DNA of 25,139 bases from a virus (lineage: Duplodnaviria; Caudoviricetes), in the IMG/VR virus record IMGVR_UViG_3300033067_000076, positions 1 to 25,139 of that record; one strand, written 5' to 3'. Positions 3,200 through 20,684 of the stretch are shown here, piece by piece. Made by a program: the position numbers and the translations under genes. The notes beneath the pieces were generated by a model. It ran no database searches and was not told the DNA's origin. It worked only from the letters and a program-made list of their open reading frames with translations. The stretch's first letter is position 1. Every line of letters begins with the position of its first letter.

Positions 3200-3210
3200 T
3201 TCATATCCTT

Positions 3211-3384
3211 TCATTTACGTTCATTTACTCGTTCTCTTACCGCTTCAACCAACCCAACCCACAACCCAGATTGATCGTCTTCAAGTTCTTGCGCCCTTTG
3301 CTTGGCGTAAGCTATCCAGCCCTTCTGTAAAGCCATCTTTGTCAGATGCTCCACTTGTTGCTCGAATACTTGGTTGAAATCCAT
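3211..3384 (-). CDS. Hypothetical helical protein, 57 aa (not in ORF track)
   Basis: MDFNQVFEQQVEHLTKMALQKGWIAYAKQRAQELEDDQSGLWVGLVEAVRERVNERK*. Fills the gap and ends at the next gene. Confidence 0.65.
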   Translation of the reverse strand: MDFNQVFEQQVEHLTKMALQKGWIAYAKQRAQELEDDQSGLWVGLVEAVRERVNERK

Positions 3385-3487
3385 CTAAGTCGCCTGTCAG
3401 TTCAAGTGCTTTGTTGATTGTGTCTAGATTATAAGACAGATTATCCTTGATTCCGTCAAGAATTTTGTTTGCTTGAAAATAGTTCAT
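3281..3487 (-). CDS. Hypothetical protein (INKALELTGDL motif)
   Basis: ATGA-coupled to the initiator gene. Its 3' half overlaps 3211..3384 in another frame. Confidence 0.6.
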   Translation of the reverse strand: MNYFQANKILDGIKDNLSYNLDTINKALELTGDLDGFQPSIRATSGASDKDGFTEGLDSLRQAKGART

Positions 3488-4299
3488 ACTTTGTTGCCTT
3501 TAAGCAACTCGGCAATCTTGGCCTGTATTTCAGCATTTGGCTTGGCAGCCCTCTTTGCGTCTTCCTCAATCTTGCGTAGCGCAGCGTCTTGGTTTGGCGG
3601 CGTTGGCGTTGTAACGTGAGCCACATCGTATTTGTTTGCAAATGGCTGACGCTCGTTTGTTTTAAGCCATTCAGCCTGCAAACCTTGCGAACCTCTTGCA
3701 CACCAGATGGTTAGGAAAGCGTTTAGGCTAATTCCTGCCTTCTTAGCCTCATCAACAGCAGAACTTAAAACAGTCTCAGTTACTGGCGCTTTCTTAGCTT
3801 TTCGCAATTGCAACCAATCACGCCAAACATTTTCTAAAACACCATCAGGGCAAGCAACGACAGTTGCGGCAACCTTGGTTGCTTTCTTTTCCTTTTCCTT
3901 TTCCTTTCCATTCCCTTCCATTCCTAATGGTAGGACTACGGTAGCAGTAACGGAATCATCCAACACATCACACAAAGCCTTTATTTTGCTTGGGTTTTTC
4001 TTATTGATAACTTGATGCTTTGCAAAGTTGCATATGTGACCGTATTTCTTTCCATCATATCCTTTGTAAAGCTCTATGTAACCAATACGGTGAAGCTCAT
4101 CAATCATTACCGTAATAGTGTTGGAAAGCTCCCGTAGTGGAAAAATGTCAGATTCAATCAATTTTGGATGGGCATTGAAATAGCCTTCATCGTCAGCATG
4201 ATTAAGCAAGCCTATTGCCAACAATGCAGCCTCTGGGCTTACAGAAGCCAATGATTCATCACGCCAAAAGTCAGGCTTGATAGTTCTAATTCGTGCCAT
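3484..4299 (-). CDS. Phage replication initiator / replisome organizer (lambda O-like position)
   Basis: N-terminal MARIRTIKPDFW...ADDEG wHTH-type domain, charged linker GMEGNGKEKEKEK, C-terminal W.DWLQLRKAKKAPVTET...RG.QG...EW domain. Lies downstream of cro. Confidence 0.8.
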   Translation of the reverse strand: MARIRTIKPDFWRDESLASVSPEAALLAIGLLNHADDEGYFNAHPKLIESDIFPLRELSNTITVMIDELHRIGYIELYKGYDGKKYGHICNFAKHQVINKKNPSKIKALCDVLDDSVTATVVLPLGMEGNGKEKEKEKKATKVAATVVACPDGVLENVWRDWLQLRKAKKAPVTETVLSSAVDEAKKAGISLNAFLTIWCARGSQGLQAEWLKTNERQPFANKYDVAHVTTPTPPNQDAALRKIEEDAKRAAKPNAEIQAKIAELLKGNKV

Positions 4300-4666
4300 T
4301 GTGCTTCTCCAAGAAAAGTTTTGTTAATTCATCTTTTGTAAAAGAACCCAAAACATCGCACAAGCTATCGAAATCGTAAGAACCCCAATATCCCATTCTT
4401 ACCAACGTAAGCAAAACATTGGCTTTTGACGCTTCCAATTCGGCGTGTTCATCTAAATGACATTCAGCGCATAAAGTTACAAGTTCATCAACGTCATAGT
4501 CCCACGGCCCTTCCGCATAGGGTCTGTAAACTGGATGATGTGCGTTTAATGTTTTGTCTGCTTTTTTGCAGCAACGACAAGTCCATTTATCACGCTCAAA
4601 CACACGCAAACGCATTTGCTGCCAACGAGGGTCAAGCAGCTTTTCTGAATAGGTCTTTTTTGCCAT
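4286..4666 (-). CDS. HNH endonuclease (zinc-binding; start revised to MAKKTYSEKL)
   Basis: DPRWQ..R..V.ERD...CRCC...LNAHH...LVTLCAECH...H. GCGGAG RBS upstream of ATG 4666. Confidence 0.85.
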   Translation of the reverse strand: MAKKTYSEKLLDPRWQQMRLRVFERDKWTCRCCKKADKTLNAHHPVYRPYAEGPWDYDVDELVTLCAECHLDEHAELEASKANVLLTLVRMGYWGSYDFDSLCDVLGSFTKDELTKLFLEKHNGTN

Positions 4667-4673
4667 AAGGCTT

Positions 4674-4757
4674 CTCCGCAAACTCCCAGAAAGAAACATA
4701 GGCAGGCGGGGAGTACGCTTTTCGGTCAGCTAATTACTTCTGACCTAGCCCTGTTTC
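4674..4757 (-). ncRNA. Candidate structured 5' leader RNA (three-way junction with possible pseudoknot)
   Basis: Minus strand: GAAACAGGGC/GCCTATGTTTC outer stem, GGTCAG/CTGACC stem, GCG/CGC stem with loop TACTCCC complementary to downstream GGGAGT, next to the RBS. Confidence 0.55.
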
Positions 4758-4763
4758 AAAACA

Positions 4764-5069
4764 TTATACCTGTTTCACAAAGATTCCGTCTTTGTTGAGA
4801 AAACCTTTGCGATCTTTGATTTCGTTGTAAGCGCTTTCAAAACAAGTCACAAGGTCAAGGTCAGCACAAGCGCAACCCATTACCAAGGTTACAAGAATGT
4901 CGCCGTATGCGTCTGCCATTGCAGCCCTGTCGTTAGCAGCAAAAGCATCAAACAGTTCAATCAGTTCTTCACGGGTTTTAAGCGCCTGTGCGTAAGGTGT
5001 GCTGTTTTGCACAATTCCACGCTTTTCGCCCCATTGCACAACTTTCATTTCGATTTCTGAATAACTCAT
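4764..5069 (-). CDS. MazG-like all-alpha NTP pyrophosphohydrolase
   Basis: QALKTREELIEL...DAYGDILVTL...AYNEIKDRKG...GIFVK pattern. Confidence 0.85.
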   Translation of the reverse strand: MSYSEIEMKVVQWGEKRGIVQNSTPYAQALKTREELIELFDAFAANDRAAMADAYGDILVTLVMGCACADLDLVTCFESAYNEIKDRKGFLNKDGIFVKQV

Positions 5070-5236
5070 TTTTTGTCTTTCAATAGTTCAGGAAAATGCA
5101 ATTGAATCTGCCAGATGCGAGACTTTGGGATAACCCCGTTTTGCTTCCATAGCCAAACAGTCCCACGCTCAACGCCAAGCAGACGCGCAAGCTCACTCTG
5201 TGAGCCTACTTTCTTGATAAGATGGTCTATGTTCAT
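5066..5236 (-). CDS. cro: Cro-like HTH regulator, 56 aa (not in ORF track; probably leaderless)
   Basis: MNIDHLIKKVGSQSELARLLGVERGTVWLWKQNGVIPKSRIWQIQLHFPELLKDKK*. First gene of the leftward operon, with ATGA overlap into the MazG-like gene. Confidence 0.85.
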   Translation of the reverse strand: MNIDHLIKKVGSQSELARLLGVERGTVWLWKQNGVIPKSRIWQIQLHFPELLKDKK

Positions 5237-5242
5237 GCCAGT

Positions 5243-5271
5243 AGTGTAAAGAAAAATTGACGAAAATACAA
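5243..5271 (-). promoter_or_regulatory. Leftward sigma70-type promoter for cro
   Basis: TTGTAT-17 nt-TACACT, then 6 nt before the cro ATG, with no SD sequence. Confidence 0.65.
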
Positions 5272-5296
5272 CACAACAAAAATATTTTTGCGATTG

Positions 5297-5326
5297 TTGA
5301 AAATTCTGTCAATTTTCCTGCACAAT
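5297..5326 (+). promoter_or_regulatory. Rightward sigma70-type promoter overlapping a candidate operator
   Basis: TTGAAA-18 nt-CACAAT. Contains TTGAAAATTCTGTCAA, similar to TTGACGAAAATACAA at 5257-5271. Confidence 0.5.
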
Positions 5327-5371
5327 ACATTCATCCCGTAGCGCAACGCAAGCGGTAACTTAGGAAACACA

Positions 5372-5566
5372 ATGAAACTCAACGACACCACCCGCACATT
5401 CCCACGCACACTTGAAGAAGCGTTCCCAGACAACGTTCAAGACCAAGAACGTCTGCAACAAGGTCAATGGATGGAACAACACCAATCTGACTACGAAAAA
5501 TATCTCAACATTGTCTATTCATTTGCCGCTGGTTTTGTCGTGGCAATGATTGTATTTGGAGCCTAA
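5372..5566 (+). CDS. Hypothetical protein with C-terminal transmembrane helix
   Basis: TRTFPRTLEEAF N-terminus, hydrophobic IVYSFAAGFVVAMIVF end, AGGA RBS. Confidence 0.75.
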   Translation: MKLNDTTRTFPRTLEEAFPDNVQDQERLQQGQWMEQHQSDYEKYLNIVYSFAAGFVVAMIVFGA

Positions 5567-5568
5567 AC

Positions 5569-6099
5569 ATGAAAACATTTAACGAGCTACGCAAAATCAG
5601 CGTCATTGACAAGATGAAAAAGAAAGGCAGATTTAATTATCTGTCTTGGGCTTATGCAGTTGATGTGCTTTTGCAAGAAGATAAAGATGCAAATTGGGAG
5701 TTCAAAGCGCCCCAAATGTTTGGCGAAACAATGATGGTCTTTTGCACTGTGACTGCTTTCGGAGCGTCACGAACAGCGTTTTTGCCAGTTATGAACAACA
5801 ATAATCAGGCAATAGCAAACCCTGACGCAAACCAAGTAAACAAGGCTATGCAGCGTTGTTTGGTTAAGGCAATAGCTTTGCATGGAATTGCGCTTTACAT
5901 CTTTGAAGGCGAGGATTTACCAGAAGAAGGTGACGAGCCAGATCAGCCTGTTCAAAAGTCAAAAATCACAGATGATCGTCTAAGTAAAGCCATCGAAAAA
6001 ATATTGTCTGGCGACTACACAACTAAAAAGTTGCTTGATACGTTTGAACTTACTCAAGAGCAAATTGACACAGTAGATAAGGCGATTGCAAATGCGTAA
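5569..6099 (+). CDS. sak: Sak/DUF1071-like single-strand annealing protein
   Basis: KKG..NYLSWAYA...LPVMN..N.AI...NKAMQRCLVKAIALHG..LYI..GEDLP. GGAG RBS. Confidence 0.85.
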   Translation: MKTFNELRKISVIDKMKKKGRFNYLSWAYAVDVLLQEDKDANWEFKAPQMFGETMMVFCTVTAFGASRTAFLPVMNNNNQAIANPDANQVNKAMQRCLVKAIALHGIALYIFEGEDLPEEGDEPDQPVQKSKITDDRLSKAIEKILSGDYTTKKLLDTFELTQEQIDTVDKAIANA

Positions 6100-6379
6100 A
6101 CCACATAAACACGCAGCACTTATCAAGGCTTGGGCTGATGGGGCTGAAATTGAATATCGTGATCGTCATAACCCTTGGACACTTTTGCCACAACAAGGAG
6201 ATTGGGACGATCATCCTAATTTTGAATACCGCATCAAGCCAGAGCCAAAGCCTGACTATGTAGAGTATTTTTGGGCAACCTTTACAGATGTTTTGCTTTC
6301 ACACAAAAGAAACGAACACAACCTCAAACTCACCTTTGATAGTGAAACAGGTAAACTTAAATCAGCAGAGGTAATTTAA
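6092..6379 (+). CDS. Conserved phage hypothetical protein (start MRKPHKHA)
   Basis: PHKHAALIKAWADGAEIE...EYRIKP...LKLTFDSETGKLKSAEV. Overlaps both neighbours. Confidence 0.75.
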   Translation: MRKPHKHAALIKAWADGAEIEYRDRHNPWTLLPQQGDWDDHPNFEYRIKPEPKPDYVEYFWATFTDVLLSHKRNEHNLKLTFDSETGKLKSAEVI

Positions 6380-7005
6380 TGTTAAAAATTCGCGCATCCT
6401 CACTCTCCGACATAATGACCGACCCAAAAGGCAAGGATGAAACATTGTCCGTAGGAGCAAAGACAGCTATCACCAAGCAAGCAAAAGAGTTTGTTTATGG
6501 CTATGACGAACGCTTCTCTAGCAAGTACACCGAAAAGGGTCTGCTCGTTGAAGATCGTTCAATCGAGTTGCTTAACTCTGTGTTGTTTGCAGACTTTAAG
6601 AAGAACACAGAGCGCAAAACAAACGATTGGCTAACTGGCGAGGCTGACATTGTTGCTGACCGCATCATTGACATTAAGTCCAGTTGGTCATTGGCAACGT
6701 TCCCATGCCTTGCAGCAGAAGGCGAGAACAAAGGTTATGAATGGCAACTCCGAGCCTATATGATGCTTTGGGACTTGGATTCAGCACAGATTGCATATTG
6801 CCTTGTTAACACGCCTGACCACTTGGTAGGGTTTGAAGATAAGGCATTGCATCAAGTTGAGCATATTGCGCCAGAACTGCGCGTGACATTGCTCAACTAC
6901 AAACGCGACAAAGCACTTGAAGACAAAATAAAATTCAAGGTTGACGAAGCGCGTAAGTTTTACGATTTGGTCGTGAAGCAAATTTCAGATGAACACTCTA
7001 AGTGA
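6379..7005 (+). CDS. YqaJ/lambda-exonuclease-like PD-(D/E)XK exonuclease
   Basis: IRASSL, KG...ED, GEAD...IIDIKSSW, YEWQLRAYM motifs. Located next to the Sak-like gene. Confidence 0.8.
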   Translation: MLKIRASSLSDIMTDPKGKDETLSVGAKTAITKQAKEFVYGYDERFSSKYTEKGLLVEDRSIELLNSVLFADFKKNTERKTNDWLTGEADIVADRIIDIKSSWSLATFPCLAAEGENKGYEWQLRAYMMLWDLDSAQIAYCLVNTPDHLVGFEDKALHQVEHIAPELRVTLLNYKRDKALEDKIKFKVDEARKFYDLVVKQISDEHSK

Positions 7006-7015
7006 AGGAAAGAAA

Positions 7016-7273
7016 ATGGCAATAGTTTATGAAGTGACAGTCAAGGCTGGCACATACCAGAAAGACGGTCAAGAGAAAGTGCGTTATCAGCGTATTGGTA
7101 GCGTTATCGAGACGAAAAAAGGCCCAATGCTGAAACTCGACCAAGTTCCATTGGTTGAAGGCGGTTGGGAAGGGTGGGCGTATTTGTTCACACCAAAGAC
7201 TGATGAACAAAAAGGAGTGCCACAGAAAAAATCTAACGATGGCTTCCCAGAAGACGAGGATATGCCGTTTTAA
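7016..7273 (+). CDS. Putative single-stranded DNA-binding protein (start MAIVYEV)
   Basis: Beta-rich core and acidic tail EDEDMPF typical of SSB. GAAGGA RBS. Follows the annealase and exonuclease. Confidence 0.7.
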   Translation: MAIVYEVTVKAGTYQKDGQEKVRYQRIGSVIETKKGPMLKLDQVPLVEGGWEGWAYLFTPKTDEQKGVPQKKSNDGFPEDEDMPF

Positions 7274-7280
7274 TTGATTT

Positions 7281-7363
7281 TGGTGGGAAAGCGGATTCTA
7301 AGCGCCACGGGATATATCTGAAAACGCAGCGACCTCTAGCGCAAAGTGCAGCGAGTACCACCA
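7281..7363 (+). ncRNA. Candidate structured intergenic RNA (long hairpin with loop-E-like internal loop)
   Basis: TGGTGG/CCACCA closing stem, GAAA opposite GAGTA, GC/GC, then CTaaGCGC/GCGCaaAG. Occupies the only long gap (111 nt) inside the rightward operon. Confidence 0.5.
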
Positions 7364-7384
7364 CCCATTTGCATAGGAACGAAT

Positions 7385-7687
7385 ATGTTTAAATTTTTCA
7401 GAGCAAGAGCAACAGACGCAATCACCAGCTTCCAAGCGGCTGATTCAATCAAAGACGTAGCAAAGATGCACCAAGAAGTTATTGTGGCTGCGTTGCAACG
7501 ATTTGGCCCAATGGGTAAAGATGGCATTGCCAACCAAACAGGCTTACAAAGCAATCAAGTAGCAAGACGTTTGAGTGAGTTAGAAAAGATGGATTTGATA
7601 GAACAGACAGGCATTACAGTCAAATCAAACAGCGGCAGGCAAGAGCGTGAATGGCGCATCAAGCCAATGCAACAGGAGTTGCTATGA
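7385..7687 (+). CDS. Winged-HTH DNA-binding protein (start MFKFFRARATD)
   Basis: ARATD..TS..AA N-terminus, then GKDGIA..TGL.SNQVARRLSELEKMDLIE..G...KSNSGRQEREW. AGGA RBS. Confidence 0.75.
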   Translation: MFKFFRARATDAITSFQAADSIKDVAKMHQEVIVAALQRFGPMGKDGIANQTGLQSNQVARRLSELEKMDLIEQTGITVKSNSGRQEREWRIKPMQQELL

Positions 7688-7956
7688 CTGACAAAGAACT
7701 GCTAGAGCTGGCTGCTAAAGCGGCTGGAATTAAAGATGAAATGTGGCTGTGGGATTGGTGGAACCCACTAACAGACGATGGCGATGCGCTGCGGCTGGCT
7801 GTGACGTTGATGCTTGATATTTGTTGCCATGAAAGAGGCGCTCATGTTGATGGAGCAATGCGGGAGCATCACACAGAAGAATCTGGAGACGACCCATACG
7901 CAGCAACCCGACGAGCAATCGTAAGAGCAGCCGCTGAGATTGGAAAGGCGCTGTGA
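7684..7956 (+). CDS. Conserved phage hypothetical protein (start MTDKELLELAAKAAG)
   Basis: WNPLTDDGDALRLAV and ATRRAIVRAAAEIG motifs. AGGAG RBS and ATGA overlap. Confidence 0.75.
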   Translation: MTDKELLELAAKAAGIKDEMWLWDWWNPLTDDGDALRLAVTLMLDICCHERGAHVDGAMREHHTEESGDDPYAATRRAIVRAAAEIGKAL

Positions 7957-8009
7957 TTGAACTTTTGATAATCGGACTTTTTATTGATTGGATGCTAGAT
8001 GACTGTTAA
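7953..8009 (+). CDS. 18-aa hydrophobic minigene MIELLIIGLFIDWMLDDC
   Basis: GTG overlaps the upstream TGA, with GAAAGG upstream. The stop overlaps the start region of 7999..8250. Confidence 0.4.
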   Translation: MIELLIIGLFIDWMLDDC

Positions 8010-8250
8010 TGCTTTTTCCCCAAAATACGTTGAAACGTATATGCCAGAATTTATTTCTTCTATCCGTAAAGAAGCAGATGCCAAAGCAAATGGCGTGAAG
8101 TACGGAACGATGGCACGAGCCACACGCGAAAGCAATGGCATAGCCAAGACAAGCCCGTTAAGTGACTTTCCAAAGACTAAACGCGTTTCTATTGAAAGAA
8201 CTGAGTTTTACACTTATTCAAAGGCAGGTATGCCAAAGGGGGTCAAATGA
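7999..8250 (+). CDS. Hypothetical protein
   Basis: ORF track. ATGA overlap with the next gene. Confidence 0.65.
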   Translation: MTVNAFSPKYVETYMPEFISSIRKEADAKANGVKYGTMARATRESNGIAKTSPLSDFPKTKRVSIERTEFYTYSKAGMPKGVK

Positions 8251-19212: not shown

Positions 19213-20193
19213 TTAGATAAAGCCGCCAGTGAGAATCCAGCCAGCATCTTTTGCTTTGTTGACCAGAAGCGCATCAGGGTAACGAGCCACTTGCAATGGC
19301 GACATATTTGTTCGTTTCAATGTAGCTTTTGCCTGTGCAGCGTAAGCGTTAATCATTTGAATCTGAGTGCCGTTGACTTTGCCGTACATAGGCATCAAAC
19401 GCTCTGCCAAGCACCAACGCAACGCCATTGAATAGCCTTGTGGCAAGACTACATCTTCATAAAGAGTGCCGTAGCGCGTGAACAAGGTGTTTGCAAACAA
19501 GTGCATTTCACCTTGCGATGGGCTAGGCCAGACAAACAAGTTGCCTGATTCTTCATTTGGGTTGTAGTAAATCGCTTTAGGCCAAGGACCGTTGAGCGTT
19601 TTCAAGCCAATCATTTGATAGTCTTGCAAAGCCAACACGGAAATTGGATAGTCCAGACCACCGCTGTTGATTGGCTGACCGTTTGACGTTGTGTTGATAC
19701 GCACAAACGCAGAATCAATGCTCAAAGGCTTTTGATAGTTTGCTGTGATGGTCGTAGCAGCCACGTTTTGCGGGATGCTTACCTTGTATGTACCAGCTTC
19801 AATGACGTTACCGCCAGCGCCTGTGATTTCAAGGGTAATTCTTGTTCCAGCAATAATGCCGCCACCACTTAAAAGCTGACCTTGTGCCACAGCGCCTGAA
19901 TTGACGCTTGTAACAGTAAGAATGTCGCCAGTAATCGAGCCTTCAAATGAAGCGCCGATAAAGTTGGTTGTTTCTGGGTATGGGCCAAGGCTGTATTGGA
20001 CTTGTCCTTGAATGACAGGGAAAATGATTTCCGTGACGTTGAAAACCATCATGTTCTCGTTTGACCATTGGTCAACCAAGTCATTCATCATTTCAAAGGC
20101 ATCTTGCGCTGCTTCAGGCGTGGGTGTTTCACCAGCTTCCAACGCGCCAATGTCTTTCAATGCCCTCGAAATTATATCAATGGGTTTCGTCAT
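19213..20193 (-). CDS. P22 gp4-like head-tail adaptor with an inserted beta domain
   Basis: [11 protein letters not shown]....GETPT...AQDA...NDLVDQW and LPQGY..ALRW.LA.RL.P.YG patterns. Upstream of the gp10-like gene. Confidence 0.78.
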
Positions 20194-20684
20194 TATTGAT
20201 TCCTTGCGTATGCGCCATGATACAAGTTTCTAGCCTCAATAGCGGCAAGTTCAGCCAATTCAAAATCTTTGAAATAGCCAATTTGTTTTGGTTTTTTGTT
20301 TACTTGGCAATTAACAACCCATTGCTGTCTTGTTTTTATCCATGCAACACCTCTAACGCCAGATGTGTTATTTTTTTGAATCTTTGAATTGCAATTGTTC
20401 TGCGAACGTGTTGCTGCTCTCAAATTTTCAATTTTGTTATTGCTTGGATTTCCATCAATGTGGTCAACAAAATCAGGCATGAAACCATTTTTGATGCAAA
20501 AAACTAGTCTGTGAACTAAGTAATTTGTTCCATCAATCCCAACATGGTAGTAGCCCTTGTCTTTGAGACTGCCAGCTTCTTGACCAACTTTAATTCTTTT
20601 TGCTTTAGAAATTTTCCAAAACAGTTTTCCATCACGATACTCAAACAGCTCGTCTAAATATTCTTTGGAAATTTGTTTTGTCAT
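20193..20684 (-). CDS. HNH-AP2 homing endonuclease
   Basis: HRLVF...[23 protein letters not shown], then [11 protein letters not shown]...W......IGYF...E.A..A AP2-like domain. Visibly AT-richer than its flanks. Confidence 0.9.

Follow-up and report, generated by a model that had tools for sequence, protein, structure and literature searches.

The stretch of viral DNA analysed here (the window; 25,139 nt, positions 1 to 25,139 of IMG/VR record IMGVR_UViG_3300033067_000076) contains a leftward operon headed by a gene encoding a Cro/YdaS-like helix-turn-helix protein (5236-5066, minus strand), with a sigma-70-like promoter upstream of it (5312-5284, minus strand). A MazG-like gene (4764..5069, minus strand; PHROG 1992 and 715) lies upstream of the leader described below, and the first gene under the leader encodes an HNH endonuclease of 126 aa (4286..4666, minus strand; PHROG 119, E=7e-15), the stop of which is overlapped by 14 nt by a replication initiation protein gene (3484..4299, minus strand; PHROG 1408, E=1e-43). 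Between the Cro-like gene and a rightward Sak/exonuclease operon (5233-5372) lie divergent promoter-like sites, and no gene for a CI-like repressor is obvious in this interval.

Architecture and family of the leader

The leader element occupies positions 4682-4757 of the minus strand, and its parts, all on this strand, are arranged around a three-way junction. Stem P1 comprises a 5' strand (4748..4757), supported by the Rfam match, the fold, and covariation, and a 3' strand (4693..4703), which pairs with 4757-4748 with one bulge and is followed by a U-rich linker. Hairpin P2 (4724..4745) has 6 bp and a 10-nt loop, L2, and hairpin P3 (4706..4718) carries an anti-Shine-Dalgarno-like loop, L3 (4715-4709), with both hairpins supported by covariation. 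The junction strands are UA (4747-4746), GAAAA (J2/3, 4719..4723), which equals the consensus core of the Rfam family int-alpA (RF02996), and CU (4705-4704). Downstream of P1, L3 is complementary to two sites, forming six Watson-Crick pairs with GGGAGT (site A, 4682..4687; pseudoknot A), a putative proximal decoy, and showing partial complementarity to the Shine-Dalgarno (SD) sequence GCGGAG (site B, 4674..4679; pseudoknot B), which lies 7 nt before the ATG at 4666. The -10-like hexamer TATAAT (4763..4768) is positioned 5 nt before P1 and overlaps the MazG-like stop. An in-frame ATG inside P1 (4699), given as the start in the open reading frame (ORF) list, was rejected as the start of the HNH gene, having no SD before it, with relatives starting at the equivalent of 4666.

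The three-way fold of the window copy lies 0.8-1.0 kcal/mol above the minimum-energy fold, and a 116-nt stretch shows no excess stability in folding energy relative to its shuffles (z = -0.75, 46 of 200 shuffles equally good). As the window copy alone folds no better than shuffles, the reality of the element rests on its relatives.

No Rfam match is observed over the window at the gathering threshold, and int-alpA surfaced only in E-value mode, with the element scoring 28.5 bits, 7.3 bits below the gathering threshold of 35.8 (E=8e-4 in 601 nt; E=7.5e-6 per genome). All 71 model positions (1-71) are aligned with no broken pair flagged, and the junction bases CUAG, CGAAAAGCG, and CGCCUG equal the int-alpA consensus, with the P2 of the window element being longer than that of the Rfam family. 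Closely related copies exceed the cut-off, including L005 (same HNH gene; 36.7 bits) and L046 (same P2 arm; 37.8 bits). Of the virus records chosen for searching, 45 of 50 and 42 of 48 match int-alpA, compared with 0 of 14 control genomes. Among descriptor-picked loci, 20 of 20 cellular ones, from genomes that span several phyla, and 14 of 20 viral ones score above the cut-off. Amongst loci fetched by the initiator protein alone, the element is present by pattern in 31 of 53, with three more variants (L008, L010, and L023) showing compensatory core changes by eye. These matches indicate that the element is almost certainly a divergent member of a catalogued orphan family, scoring below its cut-off, with no new family required.

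Family int-alpA is typed in Rfam as "Gene; sRNA", and its model has the same three-way junction and junction bases as the element, with the 3' end of the model (consensus AAGGG) corresponding to site A. As displayed, the Rfam model contains no pseudoknot, stops short of site B and the SD, and does not annotate L2 as self-pairing. Relative to that structure, the two-site pairing of L3 and the self-complementary L2 predicted here are additional features, with the family itself already catalogued. The motif is said to originate from Weinberg et al. 2017. The word "alpA" occurs 0 times in the main text of that paper (PMC5737381), and a literature search, with subscription papers mostly outside its coverage, found no functional study of int-alpA; uses of the term list its presence in STEC genomes without study, or elsewhere denote gene order. 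Copies of int-alpA occur in genomes of many bacterial phyla, with ~3,200 to 8,100 stored IMG/VR stretches matching our search patterns, the looser of which yields many chance hits.

To the window were added 533 fetched loci, giving 292 descriptor hits and 223 unique elements, a few of which are probably chance hits and were kept in the set. The descriptor required the junction words and stems P1-P3 and made no demand on pseudoknots or L2; the junction core is thus imposed by the search patterns, and its invariance is not an independent result. Covariation was assessed in the subfamily closest to the window, using an alignment of 57 rows including the window, drawn from 61 candidates. In this alignment 90.7% of cells are paired, compared with 78.1±0.6% in shuffles, and 214 cells are changed on both sides, compared with 77±7, with slid controls reducing the paired fraction to 42-55%; two of five whole-structure measures are not clearly above shuffles (21 and 106 of 500). 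P2 is paired in 95.9% of cells, with 4 of its 6 pairs changing on both sides, and P3 in 100%, with 2 of 3 pairs covarying. All five aligned pairs between L3 and site A change on both sides.

The covariation across homologs thus argues that the element is a genuine RNA with a conserved fold, located where a phage message for nuclease and replication genes begins. It upholds two proposals of an earlier note on this DNA, namely the three-way junction and a pseudoknot between the P3 loop and GGGAGT 3' of P1, and each part which that note had named (TATAAT, P1, P2, GAAAA, P3, its loop, GGGAGT, and the ribosome binding site, RBS) was found again at its place on the minus strand. The same note could assign the RNA to no named family, and counted a match to a described Rfam family as removing its novelty; the full-length int-alpA match overturns the first point and, at the level of the family, removes that novelty.

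Promoters and genes around the family

Across the family, -10-like hexamers are found 3-10 nt before P1 in 102 of 209 elements, with a peak at exactly 5 nt (51), suggesting that the RNA probably begins at P1. A consensus promoter scan did not list TATAAT at 4763..4768, with no adequate -35 present.

From 111 distinct downstream proteins, 90 were scanned after near-duplicates and short, doubtful ORFs were left out. Initiators, primases, loaders, and a helicase account for 24 of these and nucleases for 23 (21 HNH), with 3 tail proteins, 2 integrases, one each of an antirepressor, Rha, ParB, and an unnamed family, and 34 proteins without a family. The name int-alpA, which refers to a position upstream of integrase or AlpA genes, does not fit the window, where an HNH gene is found instead.

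Among 29 loci encoding the N-terminus of the window's initiator, the search pattern located the leader in 15, in every case 288-576 nt upstream, with the gene between leader and initiator being the 126-aa HNH, a 176-aa HNH, or an 80-aa ORF. As this intervening gene swaps among relatives, the leader stays with the slot while the genes change. With other initiator N-termini the leader lies directly before the initiator, in some cases with the same upstream MazG end (L031, L033, and L034). The suggestion that the HNH gene may have inserted between leader and initiator is compatible with such a swapping gene slot. The idea of a cis-acting switch on the replication genes agrees with the conserved junction, the covarying pseudoknot, and the alternative pairing at the RBS described below, with the correction that the gene directly controlled would be the HNH gene, and the initiator would be controlled only through its overlap and coupling with HNH.

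The same slot is filled at L006:1605-1755, L021:1074-1224, and L015-L018:2390-2500 by other leaders that look structured and repeat a word close to the RBS, C4-like by eye; searches of L006, L021, and L015 returned no Rfam match at E up to 0.05. A need for RNA-level control in the slot before the nuclease or initiator is suggested. Further copies of int-alpA immediately follow tRNA genes or clusters and precede initiator genes (L347:681-1275 and L335:59-415), with L335 holding two copies ~350 nt apart that differ in L2 word and L3 code. Copies also precede a tail assembly chaperone or tail genes (L308, L113, and L321), with L464 listed alongside these and its downstream protein giving no family hit, and one copy (L535, G029:C1:6216-6285) precedes an ORF, the start of which, judged by eye, presumably resembles IS200/IS605 TnpB-like proteins. 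In L407 and L164 a terminator-like hairpin follows the int-alpA copy in place of a nearby start codon, and these are possible stand-alone forms. Within the window, a second HNH-like ORF (163 aa; 20193-20684, minus strand) lies among structural genes with no int-alpA match before it.

Predicted pairing partners of loops L3 and L2

The pairing of L3 was assessed in 220 elements with at least 70 nt of downstream sequence, representing 161 distinct L3 loops, 141 of which have a usable ATG. The best L3 helix in the 45 nt after P1 contains at least 6 Watson-Crick pairs in 105 of the 161, compared with 12.8±3.3 for swapped partners. Two separate helices, each of at least 5 pairs, are found in 97 of 161, compared with 7.2±2.5 for swapped partners (maximum 16 in 200 permutations) and 4.3±1.7 for shuffled regions, and with swaps confined to identical-L2 groups the two helices are seen in 63 of 105, compared with 6.6±1.9. 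Helices A and B share at least 3 loop bases in 126 of 138 cases, and are therefore mutually exclusive. Site A starts a median of 16 nt after the junction, and site B ends a median of 7 nt before the ATG and overlaps the predicted SD by at least 2 bases in 96 of 141. Helix A is longer than helix B in 81 of 141 elements, equal in 37, and shorter in 23, with the strength of B varying widely and its helix falling below 4 bp in 22 of 141. At the level of sequence, these are the mutually exclusive pairings at the RBS expected of a riboswitch-type expression platform, and two-site translational control by L3 is likely. The alternative pairing of the loop with the RBS, proposed from the window, is supported across the family, with the window copy itself offering only 4 perfect pairs, or 6 with one C-C mismatch.

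Loop L2, the self-complementarity of which had gone unmentioned in the earlier note, contains a palindrome of at least 4 nt wholly inside the loop in 41 of 63 distinct loops, compared with 16.9±3.1 in shuffled loops (maximum 28 in 2000). Palindromes of 6 nt are present in 16 distinct loops, compared with 1.8±1.2 in shuffles, and 11 different central words are represented. The excess remains when one loop is taken per sequence cluster (23.5 of 33 compared with 9.8±2.4), and the expectation from other hairpins of the same loci is 10.6 against the 41 observed, this control leaving out loops with pairing ends. In contrast, L3 loops, used as a control, are depleted in palindromes (11 of 159 compared with 25 expected). 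Six further distinct P2 arms carry GACG tetraloops. Counted per element (n=223), a palindrome lies in the loop in 157, and in 7 more if the closing pair is counted with it; GACG tetraloops are present in 20, and 39 show neither feature.

In the self-pairing columns of L2, both partners are changed in 30 and 15 of the 57 aligned sequences, and loops that are almost the same differ through paired substitutions preserving self-complementarity, for example AATT/AGCT, CATG/CGCG, and GCGC/GGCC; as is sought in a kissing loop, the self-complementary word is kept through compensatory change. The word is commonly off-centre, with spare bases more numerous on the 5' side in 33 loops, equal in 6, and fewer in 2 (n=41). 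Since a palindrome's four innermost bases are unable to pair inside a single hairpin, and self-complementarity would be superfluous for an antisense partner, pairing between two copies of the leader is the simplest reading of L2. The pattern is probably the signature of kissing-loop homodimers, and pairing of L2 with a second leader copy in vivo is somewhat favoured. Many L2 words are just 4 nt, and it is doubtful that kisses of this length form at cellular mRNA levels.

The L2 and L3 modules reassort, with the same L3 found with three L2 words (L019, L020, and L025) and the window's P2 arm occurring with three different L3 loops. Two int-alpA matches per genome are present in 7 of 98 searched records, two of which entered the count twice, and a model search of the window's own record gave no second match. 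Amongst paralogous copies, including those of L020 and L335, the L2 word differs in 6 of 7 parsed pairs and is the same in one, with 2 pairs unparsed, and we judge these differences within one genome to be compatible with chance. In the window, L2 contains the word TAATTA (4731..4736, minus strand), a kissing-loop or dimer site predicted from the family statistics, the self-duplex of which has a predicted energy of -0.4 kcal/mol, among the weakest of the L2 words. Both the L3 and the L2 features are weak in the window copy.

Proposed mechanism, alternatives, and known systems

We propose, with a probability of about 0.55, that the int-alpA leader is a two-state translation switch on the HNH/initiator message, with leader-leader pairing as the predicted trigger. 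Transcription would start at P1, 5 nt after the -10 box, followed by formation of the three-way junction that is supported by covariation. L3 would then pair first with the complementary site A, which is transcribed sooner and in most cases offers the stronger match, leaving the SD free (ON). As leader RNA builds up with rising genome copy number, two leaders may kiss through L2, which would remodel the junction and move L3 to the SD (OFF), resulting in negative feedback on nuclease and initiator. The direction of this last step, with the dimer as the OFF state, is the least certain, and the reverse polarity is possible. The idea that L2 pairing drives the switch is tentative, and it is rather doubtful that int-alpA leaders are self-sensing RNA switches in which the L2 kiss flips L3 from the decoy onto the RBS. 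Copy-number feedback is less obvious for the 3 tail proteins among the downstream genes, and 34 of the 90 have no family.

Were such self-sensing to operate, translation of initiator and nuclease would track leader concentration, and hence genome copy number, without a protein, metabolite, or antisense gene, and the interchangeable palindrome words would set apart specificity groups when related phages co-infect. A switch driven by homodimerisation would amount to concentration sensing by a self-pairing cis leader, which we have not found described for bacteria or phages, and would provide synthetic feedback circuits with a small part that can be recoded. Should the two-site pseudoknot alone prove correct, it would still account for an orphan family of Rfam and for the restraint that phages place on nucleases and initiators. 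The covariation gives a concrete mechanism, testable with few mutations in a 95-nt RNA.

The same two-site switch might instead be triggered by a protein or metabolite bound at the conserved junction, as in a riboswitch or autogenous control, with the L2 palindrome incidental or otherwise used. The junction bases match the Rfam consensus across many phyla, and SD-sequestering pseudoknots are a standard riboswitch expression platform, both of which agree with this alternative. However, the genes downstream have no relation to one another (HNH, initiators, primases, integrase, antirepressor, and tail chaperones), so that they point to neither a common ligand pathway nor one autogenous protein, and the compensatory retention of L2 self-complementarity is left unexplained; a ligand- or protein-triggered switch is therefore considered unlikely.

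Alternatively, helices A and B may share L3 in equilibrium as a fixed dampener, holding toxic nucleases and initiators at low levels. The number of nucleases downstream (23 of 90) and the wide range of B strength, as in a tuning dial, are consistent with such a role, as are the RBS-sequestering structures described for I-TevI, mobE, and segB (PMC3014915), to which the leader would be comparable. A fixed dampener would, however, need no usually-stronger decoy, conserved junction, or conserved self-complementary loop, and is judged quite improbable.

Palindromes near a -10 box are typical operators, and with a Cro-like gene heading the operon, the L2 palindrome could be a DNA operator for a dimeric regulator just 3' of the promoter. 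Against this, there are 11 different L2 words, close relatives that share both the downstream gene and L3 carry different words (L019, L020, and L025), one P2 arm precedes different genes, and the word lies away from the centre of the flanking inverted repeat in 35 of 41 loops. Furthermore, G-U pairs occur in the stems (56 of 620 in P2) and GACG is no DNA palindrome, making an operator highly unlikely. A transcription attenuator formed by P1 and a U-tract, or a self-processing RNA as the earlier note had allowed, is likewise very improbable, given that a U-rich linker follows P1 here and in the Rfam consensus but at least 5 U in the 8 nt after P1 are found in just 36 of 161, that no minus-strand terminator was called in the window, that the covarying sites lie downstream of the would-be termination point, that no ribozyme family in Rfam matched either at the gathering threshold or at E up to 10, and that the hammerhead strand, which we take to be CUGANGA, is absent from the junction of the element.

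The proposed two-state switch has partial counterparts in known systems, with the mechanism itself not described in the literature searched for dimerisation in combination with phage leaders and for nuclease pseudoknots, for which subscription papers were mostly outside coverage. The structures at the RBS of I-TevI, mobE, and segB are simple hairpins relieved by a later promoter. In T4 I-TevI, Aeh1 mobE, and segB (PMC3014915), as is predicted for int-alpA, the RBS of a phage nuclease gene is masked by RNA structure, whereas the int-alpA loop is predicted to choose between a decoy and the SD.

Retroviral dimer-linkage loops (PMC7357161 and PMC516450) provide a close likeness to L2, with the palindromic loop of the HIV-1 DIS and the GACG loops of MoMuLV and MoMuSV both presenting a self-complementary loop word with spare flanking bases, and with variants keeping self-complementarity. 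The GACG tetraloops of these murine retroviruses form homodimers through two C-G pairs (PMC7357161, PMC516450). Retroviral kissing loops differ in linking genomes for packaging, whereas L2 of int-alpA lies in a phage or prophage mRNA leader and is tied to a pseudoknot at the SD; the likeness is one of analogy without homology, and the int-alpA dimer is a sequence-based prediction.

According to the review PMC7357161, most known riboswitches act as monomers. Pseudoknot riboswitches described there resemble int-alpA in using loop-SD pairing as the expression platform, and the kissing hairpins of guanidine-II resemble it in their two-pair C-G kisses. In contrast to guanidine-II, no ligand is known for int-alpA, and each leader has a single such hairpin, so that the predicted kiss must be intermolecular.
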